61,455 bases of DNA. It comes from an uncultured Desulfobacterales bacterium. GTDB lineage: Bacteria; Desulfobacterota; Desulfobacteria; Desulfobacterales; JAUVVS01. The notes under the pieces are model-generated. The model was not told where the DNA came from and did no database searches. It saw only the letters and a list, made by a program, of their open reading frames with translations. Both the position numbers and the translations under genes were made by a program. How positions within the stretch are numbered: the first letter of the stretch is position 1; each line of letters opens with the position of its first letter. The DNA lies in the NCBI GenBank assembly GCA_964561845.1, contig CAZLRK010000003.1, positions 1-61,455 on the forward strand, given 5' to 3'. Shown here piece after piece: positions 2,328 through 28,300 of this stretch.

Positions 2328-3671
2328 TCAAGGTCTCTTTAAGTTGTAACGTTTTATCATCTTATGCAGGGTGACTCGGTTGATACCCAGGATCTTTGAT
2401 GACTTAGTCACGTTCCACGCACAATCCTCCAAGATCTGTTGAATGTGATTCTTTTCCATTTCACGCAGTGTTCGCGTCTTTAAGATCGGGGAAGCAGAAG
2501 GACGAAGGAATGAGAAACTATTGCTATCAAGGGTCCTGGAGTTGGATAGAACTACAGCCCGTTCAATAGCATTCTCTAATTCTCTCACATTTCCAGGCCA
2601 GTCATAATCCTTTAGCAGTTCTATAGCGCCTTTCTTAACGTGATCAACCCGTTTGGTGGTTTCATGGCTATACTTCTGAAGAAAATGCTGTAGTAAAAGG
2701 GGAATGTCCTCTTTCCTTTCCCTCAATGGAGGGATATGGATTACAATAACATTGATACGATAGAAAAAGTCTTCTCGGAAGGCACCCTCGGCAACTTCTT
2801 TTTCCAGGTCCCGTCTGGTGGCTGAGATCAATCGAAAATCCACATTTATTGGTTCTCTCTCACCGATCCGGATGATTTTCTTCTCTTCCAAAACCCGTAA
2901 AAGATCCACCTGCATCTTTGGGCTGATCTCTCCGATTTCATCAAGAAACAAGGTGCCCCCTGAAACCACTTCCACGAAGCCTTTCCGGGCGTGTATTGCA
3001 CCGGTGAAGGCTCCTTTCTGATGACCAAACAGTTCACTTTCCAACAGAGTGTCCGGTATCGCGCCGCAATTAAGGGTAATGAAAGGAGCGTGAGATCGTT
3101 GACTTTTGGCATGTATGGCCTTGGCGACAAGTTCTTTTCCTGAACCGGTTTCACCAGTAATCAGAACAGAAGAATCGCTTTGAGCAACTACCAGAATTAG
3201 GTCAAAGATCTTCTCCATAGCAGGAGATTGGCCGATGATGTTATCAAAGCGAGTTATTTGCTCTAAACGTCCTTTAAGATAGTTGTATTCAGATTTAAGC
3301 TTTTTTTCATGAGCTATCTTCTCCATTACAAGGGAAAGTTGATCCGGTTTAAAGGGCTTAAGTAAGTAGTCGCTAGCCCCGAGTTTCATTGCATTAACAG
3401 CCGTTTCAATAGAGCCATAGGCTGTGATGATGACTACTATCGTATCAGGGTATTCTTTTTTCACTCTTTCCAGTAGTTCAATGCCATCCATTTTAGGCAT
3501 CTTTATGTCCACAAACAGAAGCTCAAAGGGAAATTTTTCTAATTTTTCCAGGGCCTCAAAACCTGAAGAGGCTGTTTCTACCACATGGCCCATTTTTTTA
3601 AACCAATGGAGAAACGATTCACGGACGATCATTTCATCGTCCACGATCATGATGCTCATCTTTTCATTCAT
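2328..3671 (-). CDS. NtrC-family sigma54-dependent response regulator
   Basis: Receiver domain (DD..DIKMP..TAY..KP), GETGSGKE Walker A, GAFTGA, WPGNVRELEN, Fis-type HTH. Confidence 0.95.
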   Translation of the reverse strand: MNEKMSIMIVDDEMIVRESFLHWFKKMGHVVETASSGFEALEKLEKFPFELLFVDIKMPKMDGIELLERVKKEYPDTIVVIITAYGSIETAVNAMKLGASDYLLKPFKPDQLSLVMEKIAHEKKLKSEYNYLKGRLEQITRFDNIIGQSPAMEKIFDLILVVAQSDSSVLITGETGSGKELVAKAIHAKSQRSHAPFITLNCGAIPDTLLESELFGHQKGAFTGAIHARKGFVEVVSGGTLFLDEIGEISPKMQVDLLRVLEEKKIIRIGEREPINVDFRLISATRRDLEKEVAEGAFREDFFYRINVIVIHIPPLRERKEDIPLLLQHFLQKYSHETTKRVDHVKKGAIELLKDYDWPGNVRELENAIERAVVLSNSRTLDSNSFSFLRPSASPILKTRTLREMEKNHIQQILEDCAWNVTKSSKILGINRVTLHKMIKRYNLKRP

Positions 3672-3699
3672 GGCGTTTTCCCCTCGTATTCGAAAATTC

Positions 3700-5253
3700 T
3701 TAAAAGATCGGGAAATTCAAGATAAAGGAACTTCCCTTTCCAACCCGGTTGTTCACCTTGATATTTCCTCCATGATTCTTAACTATACCATACACCATGG
3801 ATAATCCGAGTCCAGTACCTTCACCATCTTCCTTGGTGGTGAAAAAGGGATCAAAGATGTGGTCCAACTCTTCCTCAGTTATTCCTTGTCCTGTATCTTG
3901 TATTTCTATCAAGGCTTTCTTATGGGCGCTGTCCAGTTTGGAGATCATTGTCAATTGGCCTCCTTGGGGCATGGCCTCGATGGCGTTGAAGATCAGATTG
4001 AGAAAGCATTGCTGCAACTGATTAACATCTCCTTGCATTATTAAAGGCCTGGGATAAAGCTCGGTGTTCAGATAGATGTCCTGTAGCTCCATTTTGTGGC
4101 TGGTCAATGTAATAACTTCCTTTAGGATTTCGCTGATATCAACGTCATTGAATCCAGTGTTGGATTGACGTGAGAAAGAAAGGAGGCCGGAGATAATGTT
4201 GCCACATCTTTCCAACTCACTGGACATAATAGAGAGGTGTTCCTGGAACTTTTTCAGTTCATCCGGGCCCGGCACATCCTCTTTTAGGATATCTATCATA
4301 AGATGGCTGAAGGTCAATAGCCCTTGAATGGGATTGTTGATTTCGTGGACGCAACTGGCCACAAGCTTTCCTAGAGAAATCATTCGATCTTCCTGGACTA
4401 GTTTTTTAAGATCGGCCTTTAATAAATTGACCCGCCTTTCCCATGTGGATGAGAGGTCTTCTGTGAGGTCTCTGCTTATCTCGATAATTCGTGCAACTTC
4501 ACCGTTCTGGTCTTTTAATGGATAGGTAACCAAATCACAGTAAATTGAATGGTCTCCGGAGAGGAAATGTTCATGAAAGACATGGGCTGATTCACCGGTC
4601 CTCAATGTCTCAAGCATAGGGCATCTCAACGCTGGTTGCGAAGCTGAACACGGGGCATTCAGTCCATGGGTGATTTCGTAACAATACGCTCCTATCACCT
4701 CATCTTTGGATTTGTTGAAGGCCTTCAAATAAGCTTCGTTGGCCTCAACAATCATGAAATCAGGACTCAAGACTGAGATCTGTTCGTTGGCCTGTTGCAT
4801 GAGAAAGTTGGAGGCCATTTTCTCAAGAAGTATCTGTTTCTCAACCGATTTCAGTTGCTGATCTTGAAGAAAAAAATTCCTTAATACTCTGCTGATATTG
4901 TGTTCCAGTACACCAACTCCGATGGGCCTTAATCGTATAAGTTCAAGAAGTACCTCCCTACTGCCTGTTAGCTCAATTACACCATCCAGGTCTTTATTTT
5001 TAAAAAGGTCCTGGAAGTCATTTGTTGTATAGATTCCCATCTCTTTGGCGAGACAAAAACCTTCAGCCTCCTGGTTGATATCACAGACACCAACCACCTT
5101 AATATCTAGAAAAGTGAAAGGTTCATTCTGTAAAAGTCTTAAAAAGAATTTACAGGCCCTGCCGCCCCCGACAATAGCTAAATTAAAGGATAATTTCTCG
5201 AGAATAAAGTTGCTTGTCTTATTATTCTCTTTCATAATAATATCTATAGTCAC
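3700..5253 (-). CDS. Cytoplasmic sensor histidine kinase with N-terminal Rossmann-like (NAD-binding) domain and Cys-containing PAS domain
   Basis: LAIVGGGRA..VVGVCDIN..DLDGVIELTG N-terminus; HEINNP H-box; NLIFNA, DTGQGI, FDPFFTTK and GTGLGL boxes. Confidence 0.9.
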   Translation of the reverse strand: MTIDIIMKENNKTSNFILEKLSFNLAIVGGGRACKFFLRLLQNEPFTFLDIKVVGVCDINQEAEGFCLAKEMGIYTTNDFQDLFKNKDLDGVIELTGSREVLLELIRLRPIGVGVLEHNISRVLRNFFLQDQQLKSVEKQILLEKMASNFLMQQANEQISVLSPDFMIVEANEAYLKAFNKSKDEVIGAYCYEITHGLNAPCSASQPALRCPMLETLRTGESAHVFHEHFLSGDHSIYCDLVTYPLKDQNGEVARIIEISRDLTEDLSSTWERRVNLLKADLKKLVQEDRMISLGKLVASCVHEINNPIQGLLTFSHLMIDILKEDVPGPDELKKFQEHLSIMSSELERCGNIISGLLSFSRQSNTGFNDVDISEILKEVITLTSHKMELQDIYLNTELYPRPLIMQGDVNQLQQCFLNLIFNAIEAMPQGGQLTMISKLDSAHKKALIEIQDTGQGITEEELDHIFDPFFTTKEDGEGTGLGLSMVYGIVKNHGGNIKVNNRVGKGSSFILNFPIF

Positions 5254-5301
5254 ATTTGTTCTTTAACGTGGTATCAAATGTTGGAGTGATCAGGAGACCA
5301 A

Positions 5302-5350
5302 GTTATCAGTGACCGGTTACCGGGCACTTCTACGCTTACCATAACTTTTT
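5302..5350. repeat. Remnant of a heptamer-array element sharing a 17-bp terminus with 34331-34347
   Basis: gttatca gtgaccg gttaccg, then gcttaccataacttttt (5334-5350), the reverse complement of aaaaagttatggtaagc (34331-34347). Confidence 0.55.
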
Positions 5351-5574: not shown

Positions 5575-6837
5575 ATGGTTGATTCAAAAGGCTGGGATTG
5601 GGAAACCAGCGAGAAGACGATTGCAACAAATGATTGGAAAGATAAATTCAAATGGGTTGAAGAACCATATGTCAGCCCTGATGGTGAGAAGATAGCTGCC
5701 GTTGTGAATATTGATGAAGGTGAATTTAATGTATGTGTTAACGGGGATACATGGGAAAACACCTTTGACAAGATATGGTATCTCAGATTCTCACCGGATG
5801 GCCGCCTTACCGCACTGATATCTGAGATGGGCGAATGGACCGTCGCAGTTGACGGAACACCCTGGGGAAATAAATACGGCTATGTTTGGAACACCATGTT
5901 TAGCCCGGACGGTAAAAATATTGTCGTGGCTGTCCAGCAGGATATGAAATACTGCATGGCGATTAATGACGTTCTCTGGGATGAAGCCTTTGCGAATATG
6001 ACAAATGTTATTTTAAGCCCCGATGGAAAAAGAACCGCGGCAACGGTTCAAGTCGTGAATTTTGGTGCGGCCGAGATACATAAGTTTCAAGAGGGCGCTT
6101 ATACGGCTGCAATTGACGGCAAAGCCTGGGACAACAAATTTGTCAATGTTTGGAACAAGGCTTTCAGTTCTGACGGCCAAAAACTGGCTGCTGAAGTGAG
6201 ACTCAATCTTTATGATTATACCATTGCGGTGGACGGTACTGCATGGGATAAAACATTCGGTTGTGTCTGGGAACCGGTGTTTAATCCCAATAACGGATCG
6301 GTTGTGGCGCCGGTGAAGGCAGAAGGAAAATGGAGGCTGGCGGAAGACGGCAATCTGATTTGGGACAGGGGGTTCGTGCAGTTGTGGCACCAGAAGTATA
6401 GTCCTGATGGAAAAAAACTTGCGGCTATCGTAGCGCCCAAATTTGGGAGATGGACCGTAGCCGTGAACGGCAATGCATGGGATAGTACATTCTGTGATCT
6501 TGTAACGGATATGGTTTTCAGCCCGGACAGTAATAAAATAGCAGCAATTGCCAAAGAGGGTGAAAAATGGAAAGTCGTTGTAGATGGTTCGGTATGGTCC
6601 AATACCTTTGATATGGCATGGAAACCTGTTTTCAGTCCGGACAGTGAATATACGGCGACGAAAGTAGAAAAGAATGGAAAATACACAATTGCCGTAAATG
6701 ACAGGTTATGGCAGCATGAGTGTGATGCGGTCTGGGATCCGGTTTTCAGCCCTGATGGAGACAAGATTCTCATCCGTGCCGTTGAAAATGGTACATATTA
6801 TAGACGTATTATGCCTGTAAAAGAACTAACACGCTAA
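5575..6837 (+). CDS. tmcD: Tmc complex subunit D (Trp-rich beta-propeller-like)
   Basis: Repeated FSPDG / W..AVDG..W units; first gene of a tmcD-C-B-A order. Confidence 0.85.
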   Translation: MVDSKGWDWETSEKTIATNDWKDKFKWVEEPYVSPDGEKIAAVVNIDEGEFNVCVNGDTWENTFDKIWYLRFSPDGRLTALISEMGEWTVAVDGTPWGNKYGYVWNTMFSPDGKNIVVAVQQDMKYCMAINDVLWDEAFANMTNVILSPDGKRTAATVQVVNFGAAEIHKFQEGAYTAAIDGKAWDNKFVNVWNKAFSSDGQKLAAEVRLNLYDYTIAVDGTAWDKTFGCVWEPVFNPNNGSVVAPVKAEGKWRLAEDGNLIWDRGFVQLWHQKYSPDGKKLAAIVAPKFGRWTVAVNGNAWDSTFCDLVTDMVFSPDSNKIAAIAKEGEKWKVVVDGSVWSNTFDMAWKPVFSPDSEYTATKVEKNGKYTIAVNDRLWQHECDAVWDPVFSPDGDKILIRAVENGTYYRRIMPVKELTR

Positions 6838-6847
6838 GGGGGAAAAC

Positions 6848-7507
6848 ATGCATGATTTTTACAATTTTGTAACCGGTCCGCTTGCATGGGTGGCTTTTAT
6901 TATTTTTATCGGCGGCAGCCTGTACAGACTGATTAATATGATTTCTCTGGTAAATAAGAAAGAAAAATTAATTTTTAGCTATATGAGCTGGAAGTACAGC
7001 CTGAGATCCATACTTCACTGGATCACACCCTTTGCCACGGTAAACATGAAAAAACATCCTGCAATGACCATTGTATCTTTTGCATTTCATATCTGTCTTA
7101 TTATCACTCCCATTTTTCTTCTATCCCATATTATCCTGTGGGATGAATCCTGGAATATAAGCTGGTGGTCTCTGCCGGACAATGTTGCGGATATAATGAC
7201 CCTTATCGTTATTGCCGGTTGCGTATTCTTTCTTGTCAGGAGACTTAAATCGCCGGAAGTACAATTTGTAACATCAGCCTCTGATTATATTTTGCTTGCC
7301 ATCGTGGCAGCGCCGTTTATCACCGGATTTTTAGCCTATCATCAGTGGTTTGGTTATAAATTTTTTCTAAACTTCCATATTCTTTCTGGAGAGATCATGC
7401 TTGCGGCCATTCCTTTTACCCGATTGAGCCACATGTTGTTTTCGGCGTTTACAAGAGCCTATATGGGATCTGAGTTTGGCGGAGTAAGACATGTAAAAGA
7501 CTGGTAA
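6848..7507 (+). CDS. tmcC: Tmc complex membrane cytochrome b subunit (NarI/HmcE-like)
   Basis: Multiple TM helices with conserved His (FAFHI, LSHII, YHQ, FHIL); IPFTRLSHM motif. Confidence 0.85.
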   Translation: MHDFYNFVTGPLAWVAFIIFIGGSLYRLINMISLVNKKEKLIFSYMSWKYSLRSILHWITPFATVNMKKHPAMTIVSFAFHICLIITPIFLLSHIILWDESWNISWWSLPDNVADIMTLIVIAGCVFFLVRRLKSPEVQFVTSASDYILLAIVAAPFITGFLAYHQWFGYKFFLNFHILSGEIMLAAIPFTRLSHMLFSAFTRAYMGSEFGGVRHVKDW

Positions 7508-7542
7508 TCTTATTTATCATTGTAAATTGAGGAGGAACTTTC

Positions 7543-8877
7543 ATGGCTGAACCTGCAATAAAGGAAGAAAAAAAGATTTTTGATGAAGGTTTGGAAGTAG
7601 GAGCAGCAAAGCTTACTGAAGAAAAGATTGAAAAGACAATAAATACAATACTAGGCGCTGAAACAGGCGCACGTCTTAAAACTTATGTAGATACATGTGT
7701 CCACTGCGGCCTCTGCTCTGAAGCATGCCATTTTTACCTTTCCAATGATAATGATCCGCGCTTTTCCCCTGTTGGCAAGGTGAAACAGACCATGTGGGAA
7801 ATATTGAAAAACAAGGGTAAAGTAAGTCCCGAGTTTATCAAAAGGGCTTCCGAGATTGCCTCAACAGAGTGTAACTTGTGTCGACGATGTGTCCAGTATT
7901 GTCCCTTTGGTATCGATATTGCCTACATCATAACCGTGGTGCGGCGCATTTGTCATCGCCTGGGTGTAACTCCCCTTTATATTCAAGACACTGCGCACAG
8001 CCACTCTGCTACCATGAACCAGATGTGGGTTAAAGACGACGAGTGGCCCGATACATTACAGTGGCAGGAAGAGGAAGCACAGGGTGAAATTCCTACGCTG
8101 CGTATCCCCCTTGAAAAAGAAGGTTCTGATATTATGTACTCAATTATAGCGCCGGAACCAAAATTCCGCGCTCAATTGATATATCAAGCAGCCGTGATAA
8201 TGGATGTTGCAGGAATGAACTGGACAATGCCGGCGACTTCCGGATGGGACAACAGCGATATGGCCATGTTTACCGGTGATTATGAAATGATGGGGAGACT
8301 GAAAAGGCATCATTTTGAAACCGCGGCGCGGCTGAAGGTCAAAAAAATCGTCATGGGGGAGTGTGGTCATGCCTTCCGTTCAATTCATGATGTAGGCAAC
8401 AGATGGCTCGCCTGGAAATGGGCGCCGATTCCCGTGATCCATGCGGTCCAATTCTTTTATGAATTGCTGCGGGACGGCAAAATAAAAGTGGCCAAAAAAC
8501 TTGACCAAACTGTTACAATCCAGGATCCATGCAATATCGTCAGGGGCATGGGACTCCATGAAATGATCCGTGAGCTCGCCAGGGCATTTTGCAAGGACGT
8601 GGTGGAAATGGAACCGAATCGTGAACACAATTACTGCTGCTGCGCAGGCGGTGGAGTTGTTAACTGCGGCCCCCCATATAAGATGAAACGCGTGAAGGGA
8701 AACAGGATAAAAGCAGAACAATTGTTTGCCGCTAAGTCAAGGGGAGCACAGACCATTATTTCTCCTTGTCATAATTGCCACGGGGGTCTTGAAGACATCG
8801 TTAGTCACTATGAACTCGGGATGCATCAAAAATTCCTGGGTGATATCATTTATGAATGCATGGAAAAACCTGAATGA
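7543..8877 (+). CDS. tmcB: Tmc complex cytoplasmic Fe-S/CCG subunit (HdrD/DsrK-like)
   Basis: CVHCGLCSEAC and CNLCRRCVQYCP; CCG-domain motifs MGECGH, QDPC, YCCCAGGG, PCHNC. Confidence 0.9.
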   Translation: MAEPAIKEEKKIFDEGLEVGAAKLTEEKIEKTINTILGAETGARLKTYVDTCVHCGLCSEACHFYLSNDNDPRFSPVGKVKQTMWEILKNKGKVSPEFIKRASEIASTECNLCRRCVQYCPFGIDIAYIITVVRRICHRLGVTPLYIQDTAHSHSATMNQMWVKDDEWPDTLQWQEEEAQGEIPTLRIPLEKEGSDIMYSIIAPEPKFRAQLIYQAAVIMDVAGMNWTMPATSGWDNSDMAMFTGDYEMMGRLKRHHFETAARLKVKKIVMGECGHAFRSIHDVGNRWLAWKWAPIPVIHAVQFFYELLRDGKIKVAKKLDQTVTIQDPCNIVRGMGLHEMIRELARAFCKDVVEMEPNREHNYCCCAGGGVVNCGPPYKMKRVKGNRIKAEQLFAAKSRGAQTIISPCHNCHGGLEDIVSHYELGMHQKFLGDIIYECMEKPE

Positions 8878-8893
8878 TAAAGGAGAAAACAGG

Positions 8894-9274
8894 ATGAAAA
8901 AGACCGCCATATTTTTATTGACATTTATATTTATTTCCGGGTTCATATTCGTATCAGCATATTCTCAGGACGAAATGGAATTTGTTGATAACCGTGTCTT
9001 TGAAAATCCGGAGAGAGTATCTTCAGTTTTTCCACATGATGGGCATAACGAAACAGCAGAAATTGAAGAATGTAATGACTGCCACCATATTTATGAAGAT
9101 GGAAAATTAGTGGAAGATGAATCGTCCGAAGATCAGATGTGTTCGGAATGCCATGAAATAAAAGCTTCCGGAAATATGCCGGCATTGATGAAGGCGTATC
9201 ACACAAACTGTAAAGGGTGTCACCTGGAAAAAAAGAAAGGCCCGATTATGTGCGGTGAATGTCATAAAAAATAG
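8894..9274 (+). CDS. tmcA: Acidic tetrahaem cytochrome c3 (Tmc subunit A)
   Basis: RBS AAGGAG; signal peptide; four CxxCH motifs (CNDCH, CSECH, CKGCH, CGECH); acidic composition. Confidence 0.9.
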   Translation: MKKTAIFLLTFIFISGFIFVSAYSQDEMEFVDNRVFENPERVSSVFPHDGHNETAEIEECNDCHHIYEDGKLVEDESSEDQMCSECHEIKASGNMPALMKAYHTNCKGCHLEKKKGPIMCGECHKK

Positions 9275-9312
9275 ATTTTAATTCACCAAAAAATACAAAG
9301 GAGAGGTATAAA

Positions 9313-9663
9313 ATGGCAAAAAAGATTCTGGTCATCGACGATGAACCCGTTACCGTTAAATATCTTGTAACGCTTTTTGAAGACAATGGTTATGAGACTT
9401 GTAGCGCCGCTGATGGTGCGGATGCAATGGAAGTTGTAAAAAATGAAAAACCGGATCTAATAACCCTTGACCTCGACATGCCGCAGGAATGGGGCCCGAG
9501 ATTTTATCGAAGACTTATAAAAAATAAAGAATTTAAAGACATACCGGTTATTGTTATCAGCGGAATAGACGGCGATCATGCCATAGGAAAGGCTGTAGCT
9601 TTCGTAAAAAAACCGTTCGATACGGATAAACTTTTAGGAATAGTTAAAAGAACGATCGGTTAA
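9313..9663 (+). CDS. Single-domain response regulator (tmc-associated type)
   Basis: ILVIDDE..ITLDLDMPQEWGPRFYR..ISG..KKP. Confidence 0.9.
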   Translation: MAKKILVIDDEPVTVKYLVTLFEDNGYETCSAADGADAMEVVKNEKPDLITLDLDMPQEWGPRFYRRLIKNKEFKDIPVIVISGIDGDHAIGKAVAFVKKPFDTDKLLGIVKRTIG

Positions 9664-9796
9664 AGCAACTGAGAATATTATCACAAAACCGGAGTATTAA
9701 GATCCAGATTTCCATAATATTCTACACACTTAATTTGTGCTGGTCTAAATTAATTCCCCCTTTTTGCCCTCCGAAAACTACCCAGGAGTATTATTC

Positions 9797-11344
9797 ATGG
9801 TTATTTCCAACCTTTGGAAAGTTGTTCTAATCGACGATGAAGAAGATATCCGTGAAGTAACAAAAATATCCCTTGAAGACAAGGGGTATACAGTAAACAC
9901 TGCTAAAGACGGTGAGGCAGGAATACAACTGTGCAAAGAGATGTCTCCTCAAATCGTTATCACGGACATTCGCATGCCGAAAATGAACGGAATTCAGGTC
10001 CTCGATACCATAAAAAAGGATGATCCAGATATAGAAGTCATTGTAATTACTGCATTTGGTGAGATGGACCTGGCCATCCAGGCTCTCCAGTTAGACGCTT
10101 CGGATTTTATAACTAAACCGATCAATGATGAAGCGCTTCACCTTGCCTTGAAGCGTGCTCAACACCGCTACACTTCTAAAAAACAACTTAAGGACTACAC
10201 CGCTCTTCTGGAAAAGGAAAAGGCAGAAACCGCCCAAGAGCTGATAAGAACACTGTCTTTCCGAGAAAATCTCATAGAGAGTTCCATGGACGGGATAATA
10301 GGATGTGATGAAAAAGAAAATGTGATTATATTCAACAAAAGCATGGAAAAGATGCTCGGTTATTCCAAAAATGAAGTTTTCAATAAAATGACCCTTGATC
10401 AGTTTTTTTTTCCAGGCGAAGAAATACGGTTCAAAACAGAACTCGCAAGTGAGAAGTATGGTGGGGAAAACCGGCTTTTTCTCTATGAAACTACACTGCT
10501 GGAAAGCTCCGGCCTGACAATTCCCGTTGAAGTTTCGGTCATTGTACTGTTTAACGAGAACAGGGAAGATGGTTTGGTCTGTTTTTTCAGGGACCTTCGT
10601 GAAATCCGGAAACTTGAGCGAGAGGTTGCTGATCAGGCCCGCATACTTCACCAGGACAAAATGATGTCCCTGGGGCGGCTTGCGGCAAGCGTAGTGCATG
10701 AAATTAACAATCCTCTATCCGGAATTCTCAATTATTTGAGGCTTATGGCACGTATTCTGCAACGCGGCACACTAGATGAAAAGCGCCAAAATAAATTTCA
10801 GCAGTATCTAGACCTTGTGGAAAACGAAACGAGTCGTTGTTCTCGGATCATTTCCAACCTTCTTACTTTTTCGCGAAAATCCGCTCCGTCTTTTGAGCAG
10901 GTGCAAATTGACGAACTTTTAAACCGATGCATGCTTCTTAGTCAGCATAAACTTGAGTTGAGCAACATCAACCTTGTTCATTCCATGGAACCGGGAATAC
11001 CTCCTGTACTTGGCGACTTCAACCAACTACAGCAATGTATCATAAATCTTATTTTCAACGCGATTGACGCCATGCCGAATGGGGGAACACTTAATCTTGA
11101 GGGGCGTTGCGATTCTACAACCGGTTTTGTATTTATCAAGGTGAAAGATTCAGGGCCGGGAATTCCCGAGGAGGATATTCCACATATCTTTGAACCCTTT
11201 TTCACCACCAAAAAAGAGGGATATGGGGTAGGGCTCGGACTTTCCACAATTTACGGTATTATGGAACGTCATAAGGGAACCGTGACCATAGAAAACCGGT
11301 CCGGGCAAGGCGCTGCATTTATACTCAAACTTCCTGTAGGATAA
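9797..11344 (+). CDS. Hybrid REC-PAS-histidine kinase
   Basis: RBS AGGAG before ATG 9797; receiver domain, PAS, HEINNP H-box, G1/F/G2 boxes. Confidence 0.92.
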   Translation: MVISNLWKVVLIDDEEDIREVTKISLEDKGYTVNTAKDGEAGIQLCKEMSPQIVITDIRMPKMNGIQVLDTIKKDDPDIEVIVITAFGEMDLAIQALQLDASDFITKPINDEALHLALKRAQHRYTSKKQLKDYTALLEKEKAETAQELIRTLSFRENLIESSMDGIIGCDEKENVIIFNKSMEKMLGYSKNEVFNKMTLDQFFFPGEEIRFKTELASEKYGGENRLFLYETTLLESSGLTIPVEVSVIVLFNENREDGLVCFFRDLREIRKLEREVADQARILHQDKMMSLGRLAASVVHEINNPLSGILNYLRLMARILQRGTLDEKRQNKFQQYLDLVENETSRCSRIISNLLTFSRKSAPSFEQVQIDELLNRCMLLSQHKLELSNINLVHSMEPGIPPVLGDFNQLQQCIINLIFNAIDAMPNGGTLNLEGRCDSTTGFVFIKVKDSGPGIPEEDIPHIFEPFFTTKKEGYGVGLGLSTIYGIMERHKGTVTIENRSGQGAAFILKLPVG

Positions 11345-11678: not shown

Positions 11679-13430
11679 ATGGCAATAAAAATAGGTAAAC
11701 CCGCCGATCCCAATTTAAGCGTAATTCAGTGTGAGAAATGGATAGAGCTCCTGGATGAATTGAATGTCGGGGCATTCACTGTGGATCTTCACCGTCGGAT
11801 TTCATCCATGAACTTAAACGCTCAGGCGCTTATTGGGATGCGAGAAGTTGAAGTGGTCGGCAGAGATTGTCGTGAAGTCTTTGTAGGGGTCCCCTGTTTA
11901 ACGACTTGCATATTCAGTGAGAAAGTTGATGTTGAAGCAGAAGAGCCTATTGTGGAAATCTTTGACGAAGATGATACCAGACACCTGGTGACACGGATGG
12001 CCACGCCCTTTTACGGACCGGATCGAAATGTGGCAGGATGTTTGACCATACTCCAAGACAACTCACCCATTGCCGACCTTATCAATAGAGTTCACCACGA
12101 AGAACGCAGCCTTAAAATCATTCTTGACAACCTTGATGTGGGTATTTTCACGGTAAACCGTGGAGGGCTCATCACATTTTTTAATAGGGCAGCTGAAAAG
12201 ATTCTTGGTTACAATCGCGGTCAGGTGTTGGGAGAACCCTGTTCAGCAATTTTTGGAGGAGATCAAACGCCTGATATTTGTTTGCTAAAGGCGTCCATAG
12301 AAGACGGCAGCTCGCGCGTTTCTCAGGGCGGAAGGATGTATACCATTGATGATGTATCCATTCCGGTTCGTGCTACTTATATGGCTCTTAAAAACGAAAA
12401 AGGAACCGTTGTAGGAGGGCTTGTTACTTTCCATGATCTCACTTTAATTCGTCAGCTCAACCAGGTAATCAGCGACCGCTATACTTTTTATGACATGATC
12501 GGAAAAAGCCCTGCCATGCAGAATATCTTCGAAATGGTGAATGTGGTATCAGAAAGCGATGCCACGATTCTTATTGAAGGAGATACAGGTACCGGAAAGG
12601 ACCTATTGGCCAAGGTTATCCATTCCGCAGGCAGGCGTTCTGATAAGCATATGATCAAGGTAAATTGTGCGGCAATTCCGGATAATCTTCTTGAATCGGA
12701 ATTATTCGGTTACATCAGGGGGGCATTTACCGGAGCGGATCGGGATAAACCCGGGCGTTTTCAGGAGGCAGACGGAGGAACAATATTTCTGGATGAGATC
12801 GGCGAAATACCTCTTTCCCTTCAGGCTAAACTTTTAAGGGTTTTGGAAGATAAAGAATTTTATCCCCTAGGTGGTCGTAGAACCGTAAAAGTTAATGTAC
12901 GTATTATTTCTGCTACAAACCGTAGTTTGGAAAGGTTGGTGGACGAGCAACTTTTCCGTGAGGATCTCTTTTATCGGCTTAATGTGCTGCGATTAGAGCT
13001 GCCTTCCCTGAAAAATCGACGTGAGGATCTTTCTTTACTTATTTCTCATATAATCAGGAAATTGTGCGTTACAAAAGAGAGCGGGCCACCTGCGATTTCC
13101 CAAAAAACCATGGAAATTTTGCTCAACTATGATTATCCTGGTAATGTCAGGGAACTTGAAAACATTCTTGAACACTCTCTGTTAATCTGTCGTGGCAAGG
13201 AGATAAAGCCTGAACATCTTCCAATTTCTATCCAAAAGCGTTCTGCAATTCACATGCCCGGTATTTCTATCGCTCATATGGTTGCGAGCGGTTCAAATGG
13301 CGGAGAACGAAAAAAGATTCTTCGAGCACTTAAACAATACAACGGGCATAGGGGAAAGACTTCCCGCGCTCTGGGCATGGACCGCACCACCCTTTGGCGA
13401 AAAATGAAAAGGCTCGGTCTTACCTTTTGA
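11679..13430 (+). CDS. PAS-PAS sigma54-dependent transcriptional activator
   Basis: Two PAS domains, GDTGTGKD Walker A, GAFTGA, YPGNVRELEN, C-terminal HTH (LGMDRTTLWRK). Confidence 0.93.
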   Translation: MAIKIGKPADPNLSVIQCEKWIELLDELNVGAFTVDLHRRISSMNLNAQALIGMREVEVVGRDCREVFVGVPCLTTCIFSEKVDVEAEEPIVEIFDEDDTRHLVTRMATPFYGPDRNVAGCLTILQDNSPIADLINRVHHEERSLKIILDNLDVGIFTVNRGGLITFFNRAAEKILGYNRGQVLGEPCSAIFGGDQTPDICLLKASIEDGSSRVSQGGRMYTIDDVSIPVRATYMALKNEKGTVVGGLVTFHDLTLIRQLNQVISDRYTFYDMIGKSPAMQNIFEMVNVVSESDATILIEGDTGTGKDLLAKVIHSAGRRSDKHMIKVNCAAIPDNLLESELFGYIRGAFTGADRDKPGRFQEADGGTIFLDEIGEIPLSLQAKLLRVLEDKEFYPLGGRRTVKVNVRIISATNRSLERLVDEQLFREDLFYRLNVLRLELPSLKNRREDLSLLISHIIRKLCVTKESGPPAISQKTMEILLNYDYPGNVRELENILEHSLLICRGKEIKPEHLPISIQKRSAIHMPGISIAHMVASGSNGGERKKILRALKQYNGHRGKTSRALGMDRTTLWRKMKRLGLTF

Positions 13431-13725: not shown

Positions 13726-13741
13726 TGGTATATTATTTGCT
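13726..13741 (+). promoter_or_regulatory. sigma54 (-24/-12) promoter upstream of the Hdr cluster
   Basis: TGGTATATTATTTGCT: GG at 13727-28 and GC at 13739-40 with 10-nt spacing. Confidence 0.65.
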
Positions 13742-13829: not shown

Positions 13830-14270
13830 ATGGCTAAGGAAAGAAAGAGGATTCTGGTAGTAGCTGACGAAGCAGATATTAGGATTTTTTTATCGAACCT
13901 TCTGGATGCACGAGGTTTTGAGCTCATCGAAGCCGGAAATGGAACAGAGGGGTTAAAAATAGCCGAAACAATGAAACCGGCTCTTATCATTCTTGACGTA
14001 ATGATGTCAAATAAAGAAGGTATTCAAGTATACCACAACCTCAAAAAAGATGAGACCTTGAAAATGATTCCCGTTATTATGCTTTCGGCCATAGACCGAA
14101 AGACTTTTTTTCTTTACAAAAAATTTCAGAGCACTCCATCCGGTGCAGGAGTGCCTGAGCCTGAAGCTTATTTGGAAAAACCCCCAGAAGCTGAAGAACT
14201 TATGGGTATAGTTCAGATGCTAACAAAAACAGGTGTAGAAACAATTAAACGAACCTTTGAAGATAGATAG
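13830..14270 (+). CDS. Single-domain response regulator with an atypical acidic pocket
   Basis: ILVVADE (Ala at the first Asp), IILDVMM phospho-Asp, LSA, EKP. Confidence 0.85.
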   Translation: MAKERKRILVVADEADIRIFLSNLLDARGFELIEAGNGTEGLKIAETMKPALIILDVMMSNKEGIQVYHNLKKDETLKMIPVIMLSAIDRKTFFLYKKFQSTPSGAGVPEPEAYLEKPPEAEELMGIVQMLTKTGVETIKRTFEDR

Positions 14271-19100: not shown

Positions 19101-19238
19101 GAAAAATTGAAGCGCCCTGAAATTCCCTTACTTCCGATTAAAAAAAGAAAAACAACATTCAAGCAGGTGGAGCTTGGCTTCACAGAAAAGATCGCCTGTG
19201 ATGAGGCCCAGAGATGCCTTCGTTGTGATTTGAGCTGA
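16125..19238 (+). CDS. NuoF/HydB-like FMN/NADH subunit fused to a GltD/NfnB-like FAD/NAD(P)H domain
   Basis: LRGRGGAGFPTG, NGDEGDPGAFMDR, SCGKCTPCREG, SLCGLG; then CQKACPAG..CGLVCPAPCE, GSGPAG, GGGNVA..YRR, RCLRCD. Confidence 0.9.
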   Translation: MKFEEIRNKAMVEWEEFVLKDRAAILIGAGTCGRAAGALEVFSAFQSELDKRSLSDRCKLVAVGCLGLCYAEPLVEIKDEQGRRILYQGVDQETVPQLIESHLGKGEPVLSKAMAVMEGQPLNGIPLFNDLPMMRHQFRIALNNCGQIDPTNINHYIARGGYSSLDRVLSMNPEDVIDMVETSLLRGRGGAGFPTGTKWRFCRNAPGDIRYLICNGDEGDPGAFMDRSIMEGDPHAIIEGMLIGAFAMDAKEGALYVRGEYPLAIEHLNQALNDAREMGILGKNVMGTDFNFELHIVRNAGAFVSGEETALLRSVEGSVAEPRPRPPFPAQSGLYGQPTCINNVETWANVPIIVKKGPDWFKNVGVEKNGGTKLFSLAGKVKNTGLVEIPMGTSVRDVVFEVGGGILGDNPIKAVQTGGPSGGCIPESMLDLPLTYEGLVEAGTIMGSGGMIVMDSETCMVDIARFFLEFTTKESCGKCTPCREGTEKMLEIMERICAGEAEEDDIALLERLANGVAATSLCGLGQTAPNPAKSTLKYFKEEYLAHIRDKYCPAGVCKKLVPGHCQKACPAGIDVPSYVALIAHGRFEEAVRVIREDNPFPWVCGLVCPAPCEKECERGTVDKPISIRVLKAFASKYVMENLGSYKTAIKTKRDDKIAIIGSGPAGLSAAYYLAMEGYKITVFEALPKAGGMLRVGIPPHRLPKSILDKEIESFSNLGIEIKTNTPLGPDMTLENLFDQRFKAVYLCIGAHKPMPLRIKGEDSNEVMQGVTYLKKLNLGEPVPQGNKVVVIGGGNVAVDVARSAVRKGAANVTILYRRTRREMPAYDTEIEEALEEGINITFLSAPEEILVKNNKVTGLRCIKMELGKPDASGRRRPVPVADSQYEMEADLVFPAIGQIPDTTHLKEIEGLEMIKGGTIKVDHETFATTVKGVFAGGDAVTGPATVIEAISGGKKAALYIDAFIQGEEKPRKPPVPVRRMNVEKFEVSEEKMEKLKRPEIPLLPIKKRKTTFKQVELGFTEKIACDEAQRCLRCDLS

Positions 19239-19545: not shown

Positions 19546-19579
19546 AGAGACAGAAGTTTTACAGAGAGAGGAGTTATTG

Positions 19580-21394
19580 ATGAATAAGGAAAACATTACA
19601 CTTACCATCGACGGCAATGAGGTGGAGGTGGAGCAGGGCCAGACCCTGCTGACGGCTGCAAAAAAGCTGGGAATCTGGATCCCGACCCTGTGTCATCACG
19701 ATGCTCTGGGACCCCAAGGCGCTTGTCGGCTTTGTCTTGTAGAAGTTGAGATCCAGGGGCGGCGACGTCTGATGGCCAGTTGTGCCTATCCCGTATCCGA
19801 GGGACTCAAGGTTTTTACTGATACGGAAAACGTAATCGAAAATCGCAAGATCGTAGCTGAACTCCTGCTTGCTCGTTGCAGTGAAAACGAGCAAATAAAG
19901 GAATTGTGTGCAAAAATGGGTGTCACTGACACACCTTTTACCAAGAAAAAAGAAGACTGTGTCCTTTGTGGACAGTGTGTACGAATGTGTAACGAAAGAA
20001 TGAAGGTAGGCGCCATAAACTTTATGGGCAGGGGCCAGACACGGAAAGTCGGTACCCCCTATGAAGAGTATTCTGACATATGCCGGACATGTGGCGCATG
20101 CGAGACTGTTTGCCCGACGGGCTGTATCGACGTCCGTGATTCATCAAAGATCGAGCCAAAGCCTCTTACTTCTGATTGGGATGTTGGACTTAAAAAAAGG
20201 TCAGCCGCCTATATTCCGTTTCCACAGGCGGTTCCTCTCTCTTCTGTTATTGATCCCAAGGCCTGTGCGCATGTCCTTACGGATAACTGCGGTGTTTGCA
20301 GGGAATTTTGTGAGGCCGACGCTATTGATTTCGATCAGAAAGAGGAAATTATTGAAATTGATGTGGGCTCGATCATTCTGGCTACAGGGTTTGATTTAAT
20401 GGACCCGGCTCCCATGAAGCAGTTTGGCTATGGCAAGTTTCCCAATGTTTTTACAAGTCTCGAGTTCGAGCGGCTTAGCAATGCAACAGGTCCCACCGGG
20501 GGCAATATTCTAATCAGAGACGAAAACGGCGAACTTACAAAGTCCCCTGAAAGCGTAGCTATTCTCCACTGCATCGGCAGCAGGGATGTGAATTATCATG
20601 AATACTGCTCACGCGTCTGCTGTATGTATGCACTTAAGTATACCCATCTTATCAAGGAAAAGGTCGGGCATGATACTGCTGTCTATGATTTTTATATTGA
20701 TCAGCGTTGCTACGGAAAGGGGTATGAAGAATTTTACGAACGATGCCAGCGGGAAGGAACCACATTCGTTAGGGGTAAAGTAGCTGAAATTACCGACCAG
20801 GCCATTGAGCAAAAAGAGGAAGGCAAGCTTATTGCCATTGCTGAAGACACGCTTTTGGGTATTCGACTACGTGTGCCGGTAGATATGGTGGTCCTGTGTG
20901 CCGCCATAGAGGCTCGCAAGAGCGCCATTGAGGTAGGAAGAATATTCGGTGTTAATCTGGGAGCAGACGGCTTTTTCCTTGAGGAGCATCCTAAGTTAGG
21001 GCCATTAAATACAGCCACGGACGGAGTTTTTCTGGCCGGTGCATGCCAATCTCCTAAGGATATACCAGATACCGTCGCCCAGGCTTCAGGCGCCGCGGCT
21101 AAAGCCCTTTCTTTGGCCGCTCGAGGAAAAGTAGAAGTTCCGTCGACAATCTCTTGGATAGATCCGAATATTTGTGCAGGGTGTCAGACCTGTATTGAAC
21201 TTTGTGCCTACTCTGCAATAGATTTTGACGAACGAAGAGGTGTGTCTGTGATAAACGAGGCTGTCTGCAAAGGGTGCGGGAGTTGCAGCGGATTTTGCCC
21301 CAGTGGCGCGGCCCAGGTTAAACATTTCAAAAAGAAACAAATATTTTCAGAATTCGACGGAATTATTGATGCATTGAATGCCGTGGGAATGTAA
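19580..21394 (+). CDS. hdrA: NuoG/HydA N-terminal Fe-S domains fused to the HdrA C-terminal half
   Basis: IPTLC..GACRLCLVEV..ASC [2Fe-2S], CVLCGQC and CRTCGAC; then AYIPFPQAVP, IILATG, LEFERL, HCIGSRD..YCSRVCCMY, GACQSPKDIP and a C-terminal 2[4Fe-4S] domain. Confidence 0.88.
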   Translation: MNKENITLTIDGNEVEVEQGQTLLTAAKKLGIWIPTLCHHDALGPQGACRLCLVEVEIQGRRRLMASCAYPVSEGLKVFTDTENVIENRKIVAELLLARCSENEQIKELCAKMGVTDTPFTKKKEDCVLCGQCVRMCNERMKVGAINFMGRGQTRKVGTPYEEYSDICRTCGACETVCPTGCIDVRDSSKIEPKPLTSDWDVGLKKRSAAYIPFPQAVPLSSVIDPKACAHVLTDNCGVCREFCEADAIDFDQKEEIIEIDVGSIILATGFDLMDPAPMKQFGYGKFPNVFTSLEFERLSNATGPTGGNILIRDENGELTKSPESVAILHCIGSRDVNYHEYCSRVCCMYALKYTHLIKEKVGHDTAVYDFYIDQRCYGKGYEEFYERCQREGTTFVRGKVAEITDQAIEQKEEGKLIAIAEDTLLGIRLRVPVDMVVLCAAIEARKSAIEVGRIFGVNLGADGFFLEEHPKLGPLNTATDGVFLAGACQSPKDIPDTVAQASGAAAKALSLAARGKVEVPSTISWIDPNICAGCQTCIELCAYSAIDFDERRGVSVINEAVCKGCGSCSGFCPSGAAQVKHFKKKQIFSEFDGIIDALNAVGM

Positions 21395-21861: not shown

Positions 21862-21863
21862 TT

Positions 21864-23366: not shown

Positions 23367-23381
23367 TAAGAGGAGCAGGCT

Positions 23382-24701: not shown

Positions 24702-24729
24702 TAACTTATGTTAATCCATGTTAGAGTAA

Positions 24730-24974: not shown

Positions 24975-24990
24975 CCGGTATAAAGGTTTG

Positions 24991-25252
24991 GTAACGTTCA
25001 AAAGTGTTCGTATAATTGTCTTCCAAAATAAATGGGACTCATTGAATAATCATTCGGTAATGCATATTTCCGAAAGACGATATCAATTTACCTAGTAGGA
25101 GGTGATCAAATATTTGGGATTTAACAGACAGTTTCTTTAACACTAGAGCTTATGAGGCGCAAATCCCAAATATTTGATCACTGTGAGCAATCGAGGAATT
25201 ATACAGTGATATCGTCTTTCGGAAACATCCATTACCTTCTCAGATTTAAATG
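24991..25252. mobile_element. MITE-like family B, copy lacking its right end
   Basis: Begins GTAACGTTCAAAAGTGT; about 260 bp collinear with 44510-44805. Confidence 0.8.
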
Positions 25253-25309
25253 CTACCAAACGATTACAACAACGGACAACGGACAATAACCAATAGTGGA
25301 GGAAGTTTC

Positions 25310-28300
25310 ATGAAAAGAAAGATCGGTTCGGCCGTGGTAGTGGGAGCCGGAATCAGTGGTATCCGGACTGCACTTGATCTGGCGGAAGTCGGATATGGTG
25401 TGACGATTATAGACCGGTCACCGCATCTTGGAGGGATTCTAAGTCAGCTCGATTATCAATTTCCAACGGACCGCTGCGGCATGTGTAAAATGCTTCCCCT
25501 GGTGGATCGGGATGCTTCTTCTCAGTATTGCCTTCGCAAAGGGCTTTTCCACGAAAATATAGAAATCCTTCTTTCCGCCGAACTTGTTTCAGTGGAAGGA
25601 GAACCGGGCAATTTTCAAGTCATGCTAAGGCAGAAACCGAACCTGGTTGATCCTGAACTGTGCATGGGATGTGGTGTATGCGTGGAAGTTTGTCCTGTAG
25701 AGGTCCCGGACACATTTAATGCCGGTTTGGTTTCCAGAAAGGCCATCTATCTCCCGGTTCCCCATGCTATCCCGAATCCGTACCTGATCGATTTTGCTGC
25801 GTGCACCAGATGCGGTGAGTGTGAAAAGATATGCCCCACCAATGCAATCCGACTGCTTGAAGAAGAGCGACAGAAATTTCGAATTTTGGTGGTGGACGAT
25901 GAACTGATTGTTCGTGAATCGCTAAAGGAATGGCTCGAAGAAGAAGGCTTTACAGTGGAAACTGCAGGATCCGGCACCGAGGCACTGGATAGCCTTACAG
26001 AAGGAGCGTACCACTTAATGCTCACCGATATAAAAATGCCGGGAATGGACGGCATTGAAGTGCTTCAAAAGGCCAGGGAGAATTTCCCTGACCTTACCGT
26101 AGTTATGATGACGGCCTACGCTACGGTGGAAAGCGCAGTTGAAGCGATGAAAATAGGCGCCCTTGACTATCTCATGAAACCCTTTGACCCTGACAAAATA
26201 GTAGCCATGGTACGTGGAATTTATGGAGATATAGAAGCTGCCCAAGGACGTCAACTGGAAGCGGGGGCTATAGTCTTTTGCGGCGGTACAGACTATTTCG
26301 ATCCTGCAAGCGGTAAGAACACCTTTGGTTATGGAGTATATCCCAACGTTGTAACGAGTCTGGAATTCGAAAGGATCTTTAGCGGCAGCGGTCCCAGCCA
26401 TGGCAAGTTGGTACGTCCTTTTGACGGAAAACCGATCAACAAGGTTGCGTGGATTCAGTGTGTGGGATCAAGGGATTTGCAGACCGATGCCGATTTTTGT
26501 TCAAATATATGCTGTATGTATGCCATTAAGGAAGCTCTTGTGGCAAAAGAAAAGACCGAGGGAAAATTGGACGCAACCATCTTTTATATGGACATGCGAA
26601 CCTTTGGTAAACCTTTTCAGCGTTATCGATATAAGGCAGAAAAAGAACACGGCGTTCGATTTAAACGGGGTCGTATTCATTCCGTAACTCCCGATAGTGA
26701 AACAGGGAATCTCTTAATCAGGTATGCCGATCAAAGTGGTGAAATCCATGAAGATCAACAGGACATGGTGGTCCTTTCCATAGGTCAAAGACCCGCGTCG
26801 GGAACGACAAATTTGGCCGATATGGTGGGAATCGGTCTTAGTTCCTGGGGATTTGGCGAGACAGAACCTTTCTCCCTTACCCGCACAGAAAAAGAAGGCG
26901 TAATTCTCGGCGGCGCCTTTTCCGGTCTCAAGGACATAAGTGAATCGGTAATCCAGGCTTCTGCGGCAGCGCTTTCCGCATCCCGCGTGATTCACGCCTC
27001 TGGAGGCGGCCTTGCTCCGGAACCAGCTGCTGTTCCTGAGGTAATTGACGTTTCACGCGAACTTCCGCGTATTCTGGTAGCAATTTGTACTTGTAGCGGC
27101 ACACTGTCCGAATTTATCAATTCAAAAAAAATTATATCGAATTTAAAACTTGATCCTTTTGTAGAGGAGGTCGAATTTCTGGAGCAGACATGCACCTCCA
27201 ATGGATGGGAGGCTCTTGTTGAGCTTGTGAAGAAACAGAAACCAAATCGACTTCTCGTAGGAGCCTGTCATCCCTATACTTATTCCCAAAAGCTTCACGA
27301 GTTAGGGCAGAAGGCAGGTTTATCACCTTCACTCATGGATGTTGTTGATCTCAAGCTCATCGATCATAGTTTAAAGTTCAAAGATGAAAAACCGTCACCA
27401 GATGAACTATCTGTTATCAGCAATGAGCTGTCTTCCACTTTAGCGATGGGCCTTGCCAAACTAAAACGGATTGACCCCTCTCCTGTTGACACTGTTCCGA
27501 TTCAACAGCAGGCTCTGGTGGTGGGCGGAGGCATCGCCGGTATGACCGCTGCGATGGCTATTGCAGATCACGGTTTTAATGTTGATATAGTAGAAGAGGC
27601 AGAGGAGTTGGGGGGCAACCTTAACTGGTTGCAAACAACTCTGGATGGCCATTCAACGAAGGCGCTTTTGGGCGAAACACTTTCCAGAATAGAAAAACAC
27701 CCACTGATAAAGGTTCACACCCAGTCAAGGGTGATGGGCTCCTATGGTCAGGTGGGATGCTTTTACACAACAATTGAAGGCGAAGAAGGAGATGTTTCCA
27801 ATATTGAGCATGGTGTGACAATCCTTGCAACCGGAGGCACCGAGGCAACAACTGCTTCTTATAGCTACAAAGACAGCGATCTGATAATTACACAAAAAGA
27901 GCTGGGAATAAAACTCGAAGACAACACTCTCGATTCAAGCAAACTGGAATCGGTGGTCATGATCCAATGTGTAGATTCCAGAGAGGAGCCCAGGAATTAT
28001 TGCAGCCGTGTGTGTTGTTCTTCAGCTTTAAAACATGCTCTGCACCTGAAAGAGCAGAATCCGGACATTAATATCTATATTCTTTATCGGGATATGATGG
28101 CCTATGGATTTAACGAGGCCTATTACACAAAGGCACGCAGGGCGGAAGTTATTTTCATCCAGTACAACCTGGAAAACAAACCGGATGTAAAACCAGGAGA
28201 CGAATCTGTTCAGGTGACTGTATTTGAGCCGATAATAGGAAAAAATATTGAAATAAACGCCGACATAGCGGTTCTTGCAACAGGCGTAGTTCCGAACCTT

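Follow-up and report, generated by a model that had tools for sequence, protein, structure and literature searches.

A receiver domain inside a Desulfobacterales HdrA-like flavoprotein is paralogous to that of a nearby sigma54 activator and may be served by a separate kinase

We analyzed a 61,455-nt stretch of DNA from an uncultured Desulfobacterales bacterium (GCA_964561845.1, CAZLRK010000003.1, positions 1 to 61,455; hereafter the window), which is contig C3 of a 4.34-Mb genome in 412 contigs. The window encodes a tandem HdrA-like flavoprotein with a response-regulator receiver domain (REC) inserted into its chain, a sigma54 two-component cassette whose NtrC-type activator carries a closely similar receiver, and several further histidine kinases. 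The two receivers are paralogs. Our reading is that they share ancestry in the cassette and now belong to separate kinase-receiver pairs, with a REC-PAS hybrid kinase serving HdrA; taken as a whole, we give this reading an even chance of being right. The features that carry the argument are as follows.

25250..28750, + strand: tandem HdrA-like flavoprotein with inserted receiver (Pfam, PDB alignment)
25865..26239, + strand: HdrA-embedded receiver (Pfam residues 212-322, E 9e-33)
2328..3671, - strand: NtrC-type sigma54 activator (REC, AAA+, HTH_8), regulator of the type-1 cassette (Pfam)
about 3333-3653, - strand: NtrC-type receiver, part of the 2328-3671 product
3700..5253, - strand: Rossmann-like/PAS histidine kinase, kinase of the type-1 cassette (Pfam)
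1739..2302, - strand: archaemetzincin-like protein, third gene of the cassette operon (Pfam Peptidase_M54)
474..1499, + strand: GcvH-like protein whose N-terminal region has eight Cys, gene convergent with the cassette operon (Pfam GCV_H)
463..478, + strand: candidate -24/-12 sigma54 promoter, TGGCAT-N5-TTGCA, one mismatch, upstream of the GcvH-like gene
9764..11344, + strand: REC-PAS hybrid histidine kinase (Pfam)
30273..32561, + strand: membrane kinase with a periplasmic CxxCH and two PAS domains, directly 3' of hdrACB (Pfam)
32548..33717, + strand: REC-kinase hybrid, overlapping the preceding kinase gene by 14 bases (open reading frame; synteny)

Translated from its probable database start at 25310, the HdrA-like product is 1146 aa long, with FAD/NAD-binding motifs at residues 28-61 and 755-867 and 4Fe-4S domains at 132-201 and 1094-1145 (Pfam). 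It aligns to methanogen HdrA from the PDB in four stretches (E 5e-118) and falls under the cut-off of every NCBIfam equivalog compared (NF040770, 658 of 1100 bits; NF041891, 541 of 1300; NF041778, 527 of 1400). Judged by these matches, it is a homolog of HdrA in fold and cofactor-binding motifs, and not an equivalog. With the HdrA of methanogen HdrABC-MvhAGD (PDB 5ODC, 8RVU, 7BKB) it has in common the FAD-binding, inserted ferredoxin, N-terminal and C-terminal ferredoxin domains; unlike that protein, it is a tandem, with two HdrA-like modules on one chain, and it contains a 115-residue receiver. This receiver matches PF00072 at residues 212-322 with 113.2 bits (cut-off 30.2), and its insertion point corresponds to the interval between positions 321 and 325 of archaeal HdrA (8rvu_a), directly after the inserted ferredoxin domain. 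The D, D, D, T and K residues of the phosphorylation site are present in the window and in 66/66 orthologs.

All of the best 120 homologs of HdrA carry PF00072 (120/120), and the closest database proteins bear Desulfobacterales or Deltaproteobacteria MAG names. We assembled a co-occurrence sample of 150 genomes of the same order, using ortholog sets compiled by hand with author-chosen thresholds, and found receiver-HdrA in 65 of them; 67 receiver-hdrA loci were compared, with locus L146 dropped, where HdrA has no receiver. Receiver-bearing HdrA is widespread in Desulfobacterales-type sulfate reducers, and identifying the receiver's kinase would be the first step to testing a phosphorylation switch of a core energy-metabolism enzyme. 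Receiver-enzyme fusions include the CheB methylesterase, the PleD diguanylate cyclase and RpfG, in which, as may hold here, the receiver is covalently attached to the catalytic module it controls; by contrast, the HdrA receiver lies within the chain of an HdrA-type iron-sulfur flavoprotein and does not form the N-terminal module of a signaling enzyme. Our literature search found no description of a receiver inside HdrA. The genome papers of Desulfobacterium autotrophicum and Desulfococcus multivorans mention regulators near hdr genes and no such fusion in their accessible text, and their supplements may bear on it.

To place the HdrA receiver among its paralogs, we searched the whole genome with an iterated receiver hidden Markov model (HMM) on six-frame stop-to-stop open reading frames (ORFs), finding 71 receiver domains in 66 ORFs, 68 of them long enough for alignment. 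An earlier note on this DNA had pointed to matching motifs in the receivers of HdrA (DDELIVRESLKEW...KPFDPD) and the NtrC-type protein (DDEMIVRESFLHW...KPFKPD), and to a different signature in those of the two hybrid kinases (DDEEDIREVTKISL and DDEDDIREVLSISL). We recovered all four motifs, in the translations of 25250-28750(+), 2328-3671(-), 9764-11344(+) and 32548-33717(+), respectively, and found Response_reg in all four proteins, by Pfam for three and by the receiver HMM for the fourth; the receivers of the two hybrid kinases do form a clade of their own (Shimodaira-Hasegawa-like approximate likelihood-ratio test, SH-aLRT, 100). By BLASTP, the HdrA receiver shares 58/109 identities (53%, E 1e-41) with the NtrC-type protein. 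The NtrC receiver is the closest of the 67 others, at 49.2% over profile columns (next 47.9, 45.0 and 43.6; median 30.3), and the reverse also holds: the NtrC receiver has its best match in HdrA and its second-best at 41%.

We compared helix 1 of these receivers at positions +3, +4, +7, +10 and +11 after the second Asp, which we take to be its kinase-facing face. At four of the five (I, V, S, W), the NtrC receiver agrees with that of HdrA, and it is the sole other receiver of the genome to do so: among the remaining 66, four share two positions, 15 share one and 47 share none. Over all 14 helix-1 residues it shares seven, tied with receiver C295_2301. In Capra et al. 2010 (PMC2991266), we found no residue numbers for the OmpR specificity positions in the text. 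The accessible part of that paper reports that changing three helix-1 residues and the beta5-alpha5 loop is enough to redirect OmpR to another kinase, the loop having the largest effect. Because the loop weighs so heavily in OmpR, agreement at four of five helix-1 positions is no proof of a shared kinase.

It was on this likeness that the earlier note had based its proposal of a shared kinase, most simply the Rossmann-PAS kinase at 3700-5253, which may act on the NtrC-type activator and the HdrA receiver alike, so that one signal would govern both transcription and the enzyme. The kinase that the note described as adjacent does adjoin the NtrC gene and lies about 20 kb from hdrA, and the Rossmann label for its N-terminus corresponds to a borderline Pfam match (GFO_IDH_MocA, 24.0 bits at a cut-off of 24). 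In architecture the proposal resembles the branched chemotaxis pathway, in which a single kinase, CheA, phosphorylates two regulators, CheY and CheB; it, too, assigns two receivers with similar interface residues to one kinase. In contrast to that pathway, most genomes with the second receiver yielded no such kinase, and conserved charge reversals separate the two receivers. The sole near-match in helix 1 and the reciprocal-best relationship favor a common kinase. Taking these together with the evidence on distribution, ancestry and charge given below, we regard a common kinase as quite improbable.

The sigma54 cassette has a constant composition. The product of 2328-3671 combines a receiver with a Sigma54_activat AAA+ domain and HTH_8 (Pfam) and has a GAFTGA loop in its translation; its best NCBIfam matches are AtoC, ZraR and NtrC, all under cut-off. 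Orthologs of the cassette kinase occur in 32/150 genomes (52-70% identity, a further one at 43%, and three that are incomplete or disrupted) and always adjoin an NtrC ortholog, the latter being 63-86% identical in 27 cassette loci; by adjacency, the kinase at 3700-5253 would be cognate to the NtrC-type activator. As far as the contigs reach, the 27 fetched loci read kinase, NtrC, archaemetzincin-like gene and then the convergent GcvH-like gene. The archaemetzincin-like product scores 142.5 bits against NCBIfam NF033823, just under the cut-off of 145, and our literature search found nothing pairing archaemetzincin with sigma-54. The GcvH-like protein has a probable start at 558, and its eight Cys are invariant in 29/29 orthologs among Desulfobacterales copies. 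A lipoyl-carrier role for it was considered and dropped, Lys standing at the lipoylation-equivalent column in only 8/29 orthologs. The arrangement of a PAS kinase beside a REC-AAA+-HTH_8 activator recalls AtoS/AtoC and ZraS/ZraR; the window proteins, however, score under the equivalog cut-offs (443 vs 714 for AtoC, 197 vs 646 for AtoS), and the cassette differs from those systems in its archaemetzincin-like and GcvH-like partners.

A sigma54 consensus scan of the whole window gave 37 matches against 28.45 +/- 5.96 expected, which is not an enrichment, so we retained only sites that are conserved across genomes. The -24/-12 motif recurs upstream of the GcvH-like ortholog in 19/24 distinct upstream regions. 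The same motif was found upstream of four control genes in 0/52, 0/55, 0/50 and 0/48 regions, with a range of 0/25 to 0/55 for most other genes, and it precedes receiver-hdrA in 1/57 regions and the single-domain receiver that heads an hdr operon in 6/33. Given this distribution, the GcvH-like gene, and not hdrA, is the likely sigma54 target, and the NtrC-type activator likely acts at the candidate GcvH-like promoter, as its adjacency suggests.

The cassette extends well beyond this order. A search of a one-genome-per-species collection with the HdrA receiver gave 58 receiver-only best matches, here called far loci, which belong to Acidobacteriota, Bacteroidota, Gemmatimonadota, Ignavibacteria and other groups. 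An NtrC-type gene is present at 57 of them, a kinase at 55, an archaemetzincin-like gene at 52, a GcvH-like gene at 43 and all four at 40, and the four-gene cassette recurs across at least five phyla. By eye, most far loci show x-V-R-[DE]-S-L-x-x-W and KP[FV]DP. On this comparison of sequences, the helix-1 signature is a family trait of the cassette, not a local match between two receivers, which speaks against reading it as the mark of a kinase shared within the window; a cassette that is self-contained across phyla and has a sigma54 target of its own argues in the same direction.

A second type exists: 20/20 further fetched loci hold a paralogous, type-2 cassette, whose kinase is 31-34% and whose NtrC is 51-55% identical to those of the window; we did not find this type in the window's own genome. 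In 10/20 of these loci (L178-L197), the type-2 cassette lies beside NuoF-GltD or HdrA-fragment/NuoE-type genes, and these neighbors suggest a link of the cassette family in general with Hdr/Flox-like electron-transfer genes.

To trace the ancestry of the two receivers, we built a tree of 71 rows and 122 columns from random subsamples: 16/66 HdrA, 14/28 type-1 NtrC and 22/58 far-locus receivers, all six from USP-REC-USP proteins (a receiver flanked by two universal-stress domains), 11 other sigma54-type receivers of the genome and two window receivers. The HdrA and USP-REC-USP receivers form one clade (100/99), the latter nesting within the HdrA receivers, and this clade is sister (97/88) to a group of the type-1 cassette receivers (100/98) and four other deltaproteobacterial activators; the bootstrap for this tree had not fully converged. 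Adding 12/20 type-2 receivers gave an 83-row tree, in which types 1 and 2 group together (96/90) as the sister of the HdrA clade (97/92). The Acidobacteriota and Bacteroidota cassette receivers fall outside this HdrA and type-1/type-2 group. The HdrA receiver thereby groups with the lineage of the local NtrC-type receiver, and not with unrelated regulators, as the earlier note had expected. The sister relationship is compatible with a common kinase, and it equally illustrates that receivers can resemble each other in their motifs through common descent and not through a common kinase.

The kinases show a parallel pattern. We aligned kinase cores in 56 rows, omitting two long-branched far kinases and the REC-kinases, thinning the membrane kinases to five and keeping eight of the genome's 36 kinases. 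The REC-PAS hybrid kinase (9764-11344) falls in a clade with the type-1 and type-2 cassette kinases (99/96) and pairs with type 1 as its sister (93/83); the far-phylum cassette kinases are the next sister (99/91), and the membrane kinase falls elsewhere. A quick tree with all 36 genome kinases gave the same picture. Both sets of trees are consistent with three parallel kinase lineages and three parallel receiver lineages that would derive from one radiation. In its accessible text, PMC2991266 treats a similar case, EnvZ/OmpR vs RstB/RstA, in which kinase and receiver lineages likewise run in parallel after duplication, and most of the helix-1 face is kept while a few positions and the beta5-alpha5 loop differ. 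In contrast to that case, one daughter receiver here resides in a flavoenzyme and not in a transcription factor, and one daughter kinase has gained an N-terminal receiver of another class.

The distribution of the three candidate kinase families differs. The cassette kinase is present in 25/65 genomes with receiver-HdrA vs 7/85 without it and was not found in the other 40 of the 65; the membrane kinase is present in 61/65 vs 31/85; and the family of the REC-PAS hybrid kinase in 59/65 vs 13/85, two of these 13 genomes carrying a USP-REC-USP protein with the same receiver type. That most receiver-HdrA genomes yield no cassette kinase, and that seven genomes have it without receiver-HdrA (one of these being of the same genus and 95% complete, with a contig that ends at the kinase), weighs against the single-kinase proposal. 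As for linkage, 36 genomes have the hybrid kinase and receiver-hdrA on one contig, and in 34 of them the two are no more than 20 kb apart (median 8.9 kb); the kinase is commonly just upstream of the hdr operon. The cassette is 4.5-14 kb from receiver-hdrA in 13 genomes (by eye), about 21 kb here, and directly after hdrACB in five loci (G006, G088, G092, G142, G145), which would suit a shared kinase, as would the complete genome G103, which has receiver-HdrA and the cassette without a membrane-kinase ortholog. In G037 and G146, on the other hand, cassette and receiver-hdrA are megabases apart. As a side observation on the hybrid kinase, three of its orthologs (G141:C226, G010:C463, G130:C79) contain one or two in-frame TGA/TAG codons and are otherwise full-length; these could be pseudogenes, sequencing errors or cases of recoding.

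We asked whether the HdrA receiver keeps its helix 1 where the cassette kinase is absent from the genome. Helix 1 of the HdrA receiver is equally conserved in the 27 sequences with and the 39 sequences without the cassette kinase, and retention of Trp at +11 is, if anything, higher in the sequences without that kinase (36/39 vs 21/27). This equality makes its conservation independent of the cassette kinase, a further point against a kinase common to HdrA and NtrC. It would also fit a receiver with no dedicated kinase at all, one that takes phosphate from acetyl phosphate or acts as a structural or dimerization module, helix 1 being kept for contacts within the enzyme; the position of the receiver inside the HdrA fold, beside the inserted ferredoxin domain, makes such intramolecular contacts plausible. 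We hold this to be very improbable, however: the five phosphorylation-site residues are kept in every ortholog, kinase genes are conserved neighbors, and the USP-REC-USP proteins keep the same helix 1 in a different host protein, which argues against packing specific to HdrA. The USP-REC-USP proteins, with a receiver of HdrA type, occur at loci L132, L142, L144, L146, L149 and L150, and also L012 (Pfam on L132:12449-13762(+)), and most of their genes adjoin a REC-PAS-kinase-like gene.

The two receiver families differ in charge at fixed positions. At +10, HdrA receivers have E, A, D, S or L and never His (n=66), whereas 27/28 type-1 NtrC receivers have His or Tyr (His in 22/28). At +14, Asp or Glu occurs in 57/66 HdrA receivers vs Lys or Arg in 26/28 type-1 NtrC receivers, and the residue after KPF, in the beta5-alpha5 loop, is Asp or Glu in 64/66 vs Lys in 26/28. 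In the five loci with the cassette directly after hdrACB, the +10 residue of the HdrA receiver is Ser or Ala, not Glu, as might be expected if the cassette kinase acted on it there. Summed over +10, +13, +14, +15 and KPF-x, the net charge is -4.27 for HdrA (n=66), -4.67 for USP-REC-USP, -2.02 for far-phylum cassettes, -1.50 for type 2 and +1.64 for NtrC type 1 (n=28).

For the kinases, we summed charge over H+14..H+23 of the dimerization and histidine phosphotransfer (DHp) domain. In the hybrid kinase, H+14, H+18 and H+22 are Arg or Lys in 11/11 sequences and the net charge is +3.18, followed by the membrane kinase at +2.36, far-phylum cassette kinases at +2.29, type 2 at +0.06 and type 1 at -1.47 (-2 in the window). 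The charge ranks of the kinase and receiver families agree when the hybrid kinase is taken as the partner of the HdrA receiver. The cassette kinase, in contrast, is acidic in its DHp, as is the HdrA receiver itself. Considering the distribution of the cassette kinase, the conserved charge reversals, the retention of helix 1 where that kinase was not found and the cross-phylum signature, we find that the earlier note's single kinase does not stand up well and that the paralogous hybrid kinase fits better. Separate kinases for the two receivers seem likely to us. A narrower claim, which we put at slightly under an even chance, is that the hybrid kinase at 9764-11344 passes phosphate directly to the HdrA receiver. 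The analysis itself shows the paralogy, the parallel trees and the patterns of co-occurrence, linkage and residues; which kinase acts on which receiver, and that phosphorylation alters HdrA activity, we infer.

A different pairing would make the membrane kinase at 30273-32561 or the REC-kinase at 32548-33717 the direct kinase of HdrA and give the hybrid kinase at 9764-11344 no direct part. The membrane kinase is the first same-strand kinase downstream, counted from hdrCB in loci that have it, in 40/67 receiver-hdrA loci (38 by script and two by eye), and the REC-kinase follows it in most loci; in the rest of the 67 loci the first downstream kinase is the cassette kinase (five), the contig ends (nine), or there is another kinase or none (13). 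It also accompanies receiver-HdrA in nearly all genomes, and its DHp is basic. Its periplasmic part contains CDICH (a CxxCH) and Cx4CH, and the retention of CxxCH in 40/40 full-length orthologs suggests a c-type heme redox sensor, which would suit an electron-transfer enzyme. Yet its presence in 31/85 genomes without receiver-HdrA makes the membrane kinase a less specific companion than the hybrid kinase. It belongs to another DHp class (H-E-L-N-Q-P...) than the cassette kinases, whose class serves the sister receivers, and the receiver of the REC-kinase, with a quite different helix-1 type, is a more obvious substrate for it. In some genomes the downstream pair flanks a PD40/DsrMK-like/cytochrome c operon instead: the membrane kinase flanks this operon in G018 and G149, as does the REC-kinase in G018. 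Direct action of either downstream kinase on HdrA therefore strikes us as unlikely, on balance of these points.

Several observations weigh against our reading of parallel, separate pairs with the hybrid kinase serving HdrA. The order within the two trios differs: the HdrA receiver branches before types 1 and 2, and the hybrid kinase is sister to type 1. The alternative kinase order gives p 0.045 in an approximately unbiased (AU) test, a borderline value for a group that was named after seeing the tree, and we do not use it as proof. Six receiver-HdrA genomes yield no hybrid-kinase match at E<=1e-100, and four of them are 97-100% complete (G037, G062, G090, G126). The kinase met first downstream of receiver-hdrA is mostly the membrane kinase, whose DHp is basic as well. 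The charge comparison is post hoc, covers four families and uses partly presumed interface positions. Within the 27 type-1 kinase/NtrC pairs, no charge covariation was found (r -0.46 to 0.32), so contact between the charged positions is not supported. The co-occurrence counts overstate independence, the sampled genomes being related, and the far loci, retrieved with the HdrA receiver as query, are biased toward look-alikes.

With the hybrid kinase as partner of HdrA, the following history can be proposed. The ancestor would be an old self-contained sigma54 cassette of kinase, NtrC-type activator, archaemetzincin-like protein and GcvH-like target, found in many phyla and carrying the x-V-R-[DE]-S-L-x-x-W helix-1 signature everywhere. 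In Desulfobacterales-type bacteria it would have radiated into three kinase and three receiver lineages, two of which stayed cassettes (type 1, in the window, and type 2). The third kinase would have become the REC-PAS hybrid at 9764-11344, and the third receiver would have been inserted into the tandem HdrA and, in some genomes, into a USP-REC-USP protein. The pairs may be insulated by charge, the acidic HdrA receiver, at the C-terminal end of helix 1 and after KPF, facing the Arg/Lys stripe of the hybrid kinase, and the basic NtrC receiver facing a neutral-to-acidic cassette kinase. The cassette kinase would then serve NtrC and through it the GcvH-like gene, and the hybrid kinase the HdrA receiver. 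Residual cross-talk from the cassette kinase is possible, especially in two lineages in which the cassette directly follows hdrACB and the acidic +10 residue is lost.

The heme-type membrane kinase and the REC-kinase would probably act upstream, via the hybrid kinases' N-terminal receivers, themselves a single clade; alternatively, they may act directly on HdrA. In its fullest form, the scheme would have a sensor pair copied from a sigma54 cassette, its receiver placed in HdrA, and a kinase cascade from the periplasmic heme sensor kinase through the hybrid kinases to the HdrA receiver, gating electron flow post-translationally. The parent cassette would still control the GcvH-like 8-Cys protein encoded beside the hdr genes, as a second, insulated branch of one redox-control network. 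We think this larger scheme doubtful as a whole, if conceivable. What we add here is the putative cassette origin of the receiver, the paralogous kinase candidate and the charge pattern. The enzyme's receiver can be traced to a defined ancestral cassette, and the question of its kinase is narrowed to four kinase cores, two receivers and three charge-swap positions.

The window also holds these neighboring features.

28777-29355, + strand: hdrC-like (blastp-based label, synteny)
29358-30221, + strand: hdrB-like (blastp-based label, synteny)
11679..13430, + strand: PAS-sigma54 activator without a receiver (Pfam), by synteny usually just upstream of the hdr operon
13726..13741, + strand: candidate -24/-12 motif TGGTAT-N5-TTGCT, two mismatches to the strict consensus
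9313-9663, strand not stated: single-domain receiver (receiver searches)
13830-14270, strand not stated: single-domain receiver (receiver searches)
47330-49282, - strand: kinase-REC (receiver searches)

The motif at 13726..13741 sits upstream of the single-domain receiver at 13830-14270, the head of an hdr/flox-like operon. The other single-domain receiver belongs to an operon at 5575-9663 that also encodes a PD40-repeat protein, a NarI-like membrane protein, a DsrK/HdrD-like CCG protein and a class III cytochrome c. Between 14776 and 21394, an HdrA appears split and interrupted: 14776-16128 corresponds to an N-terminal part of HdrA fused to a NuoE-like 2Fe-2S domain, 16125-19238 to a NuoF-like/GltD-like fusion, and 19577-21394 to 2Fe-2S and 4Fe-4S domains (Pfam) followed by a part that is HdrA-like by a blastp-based label and not by Pfam. 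This arrangement resembles the HdrL-type fusions named in the accessible text of PMC2702500.

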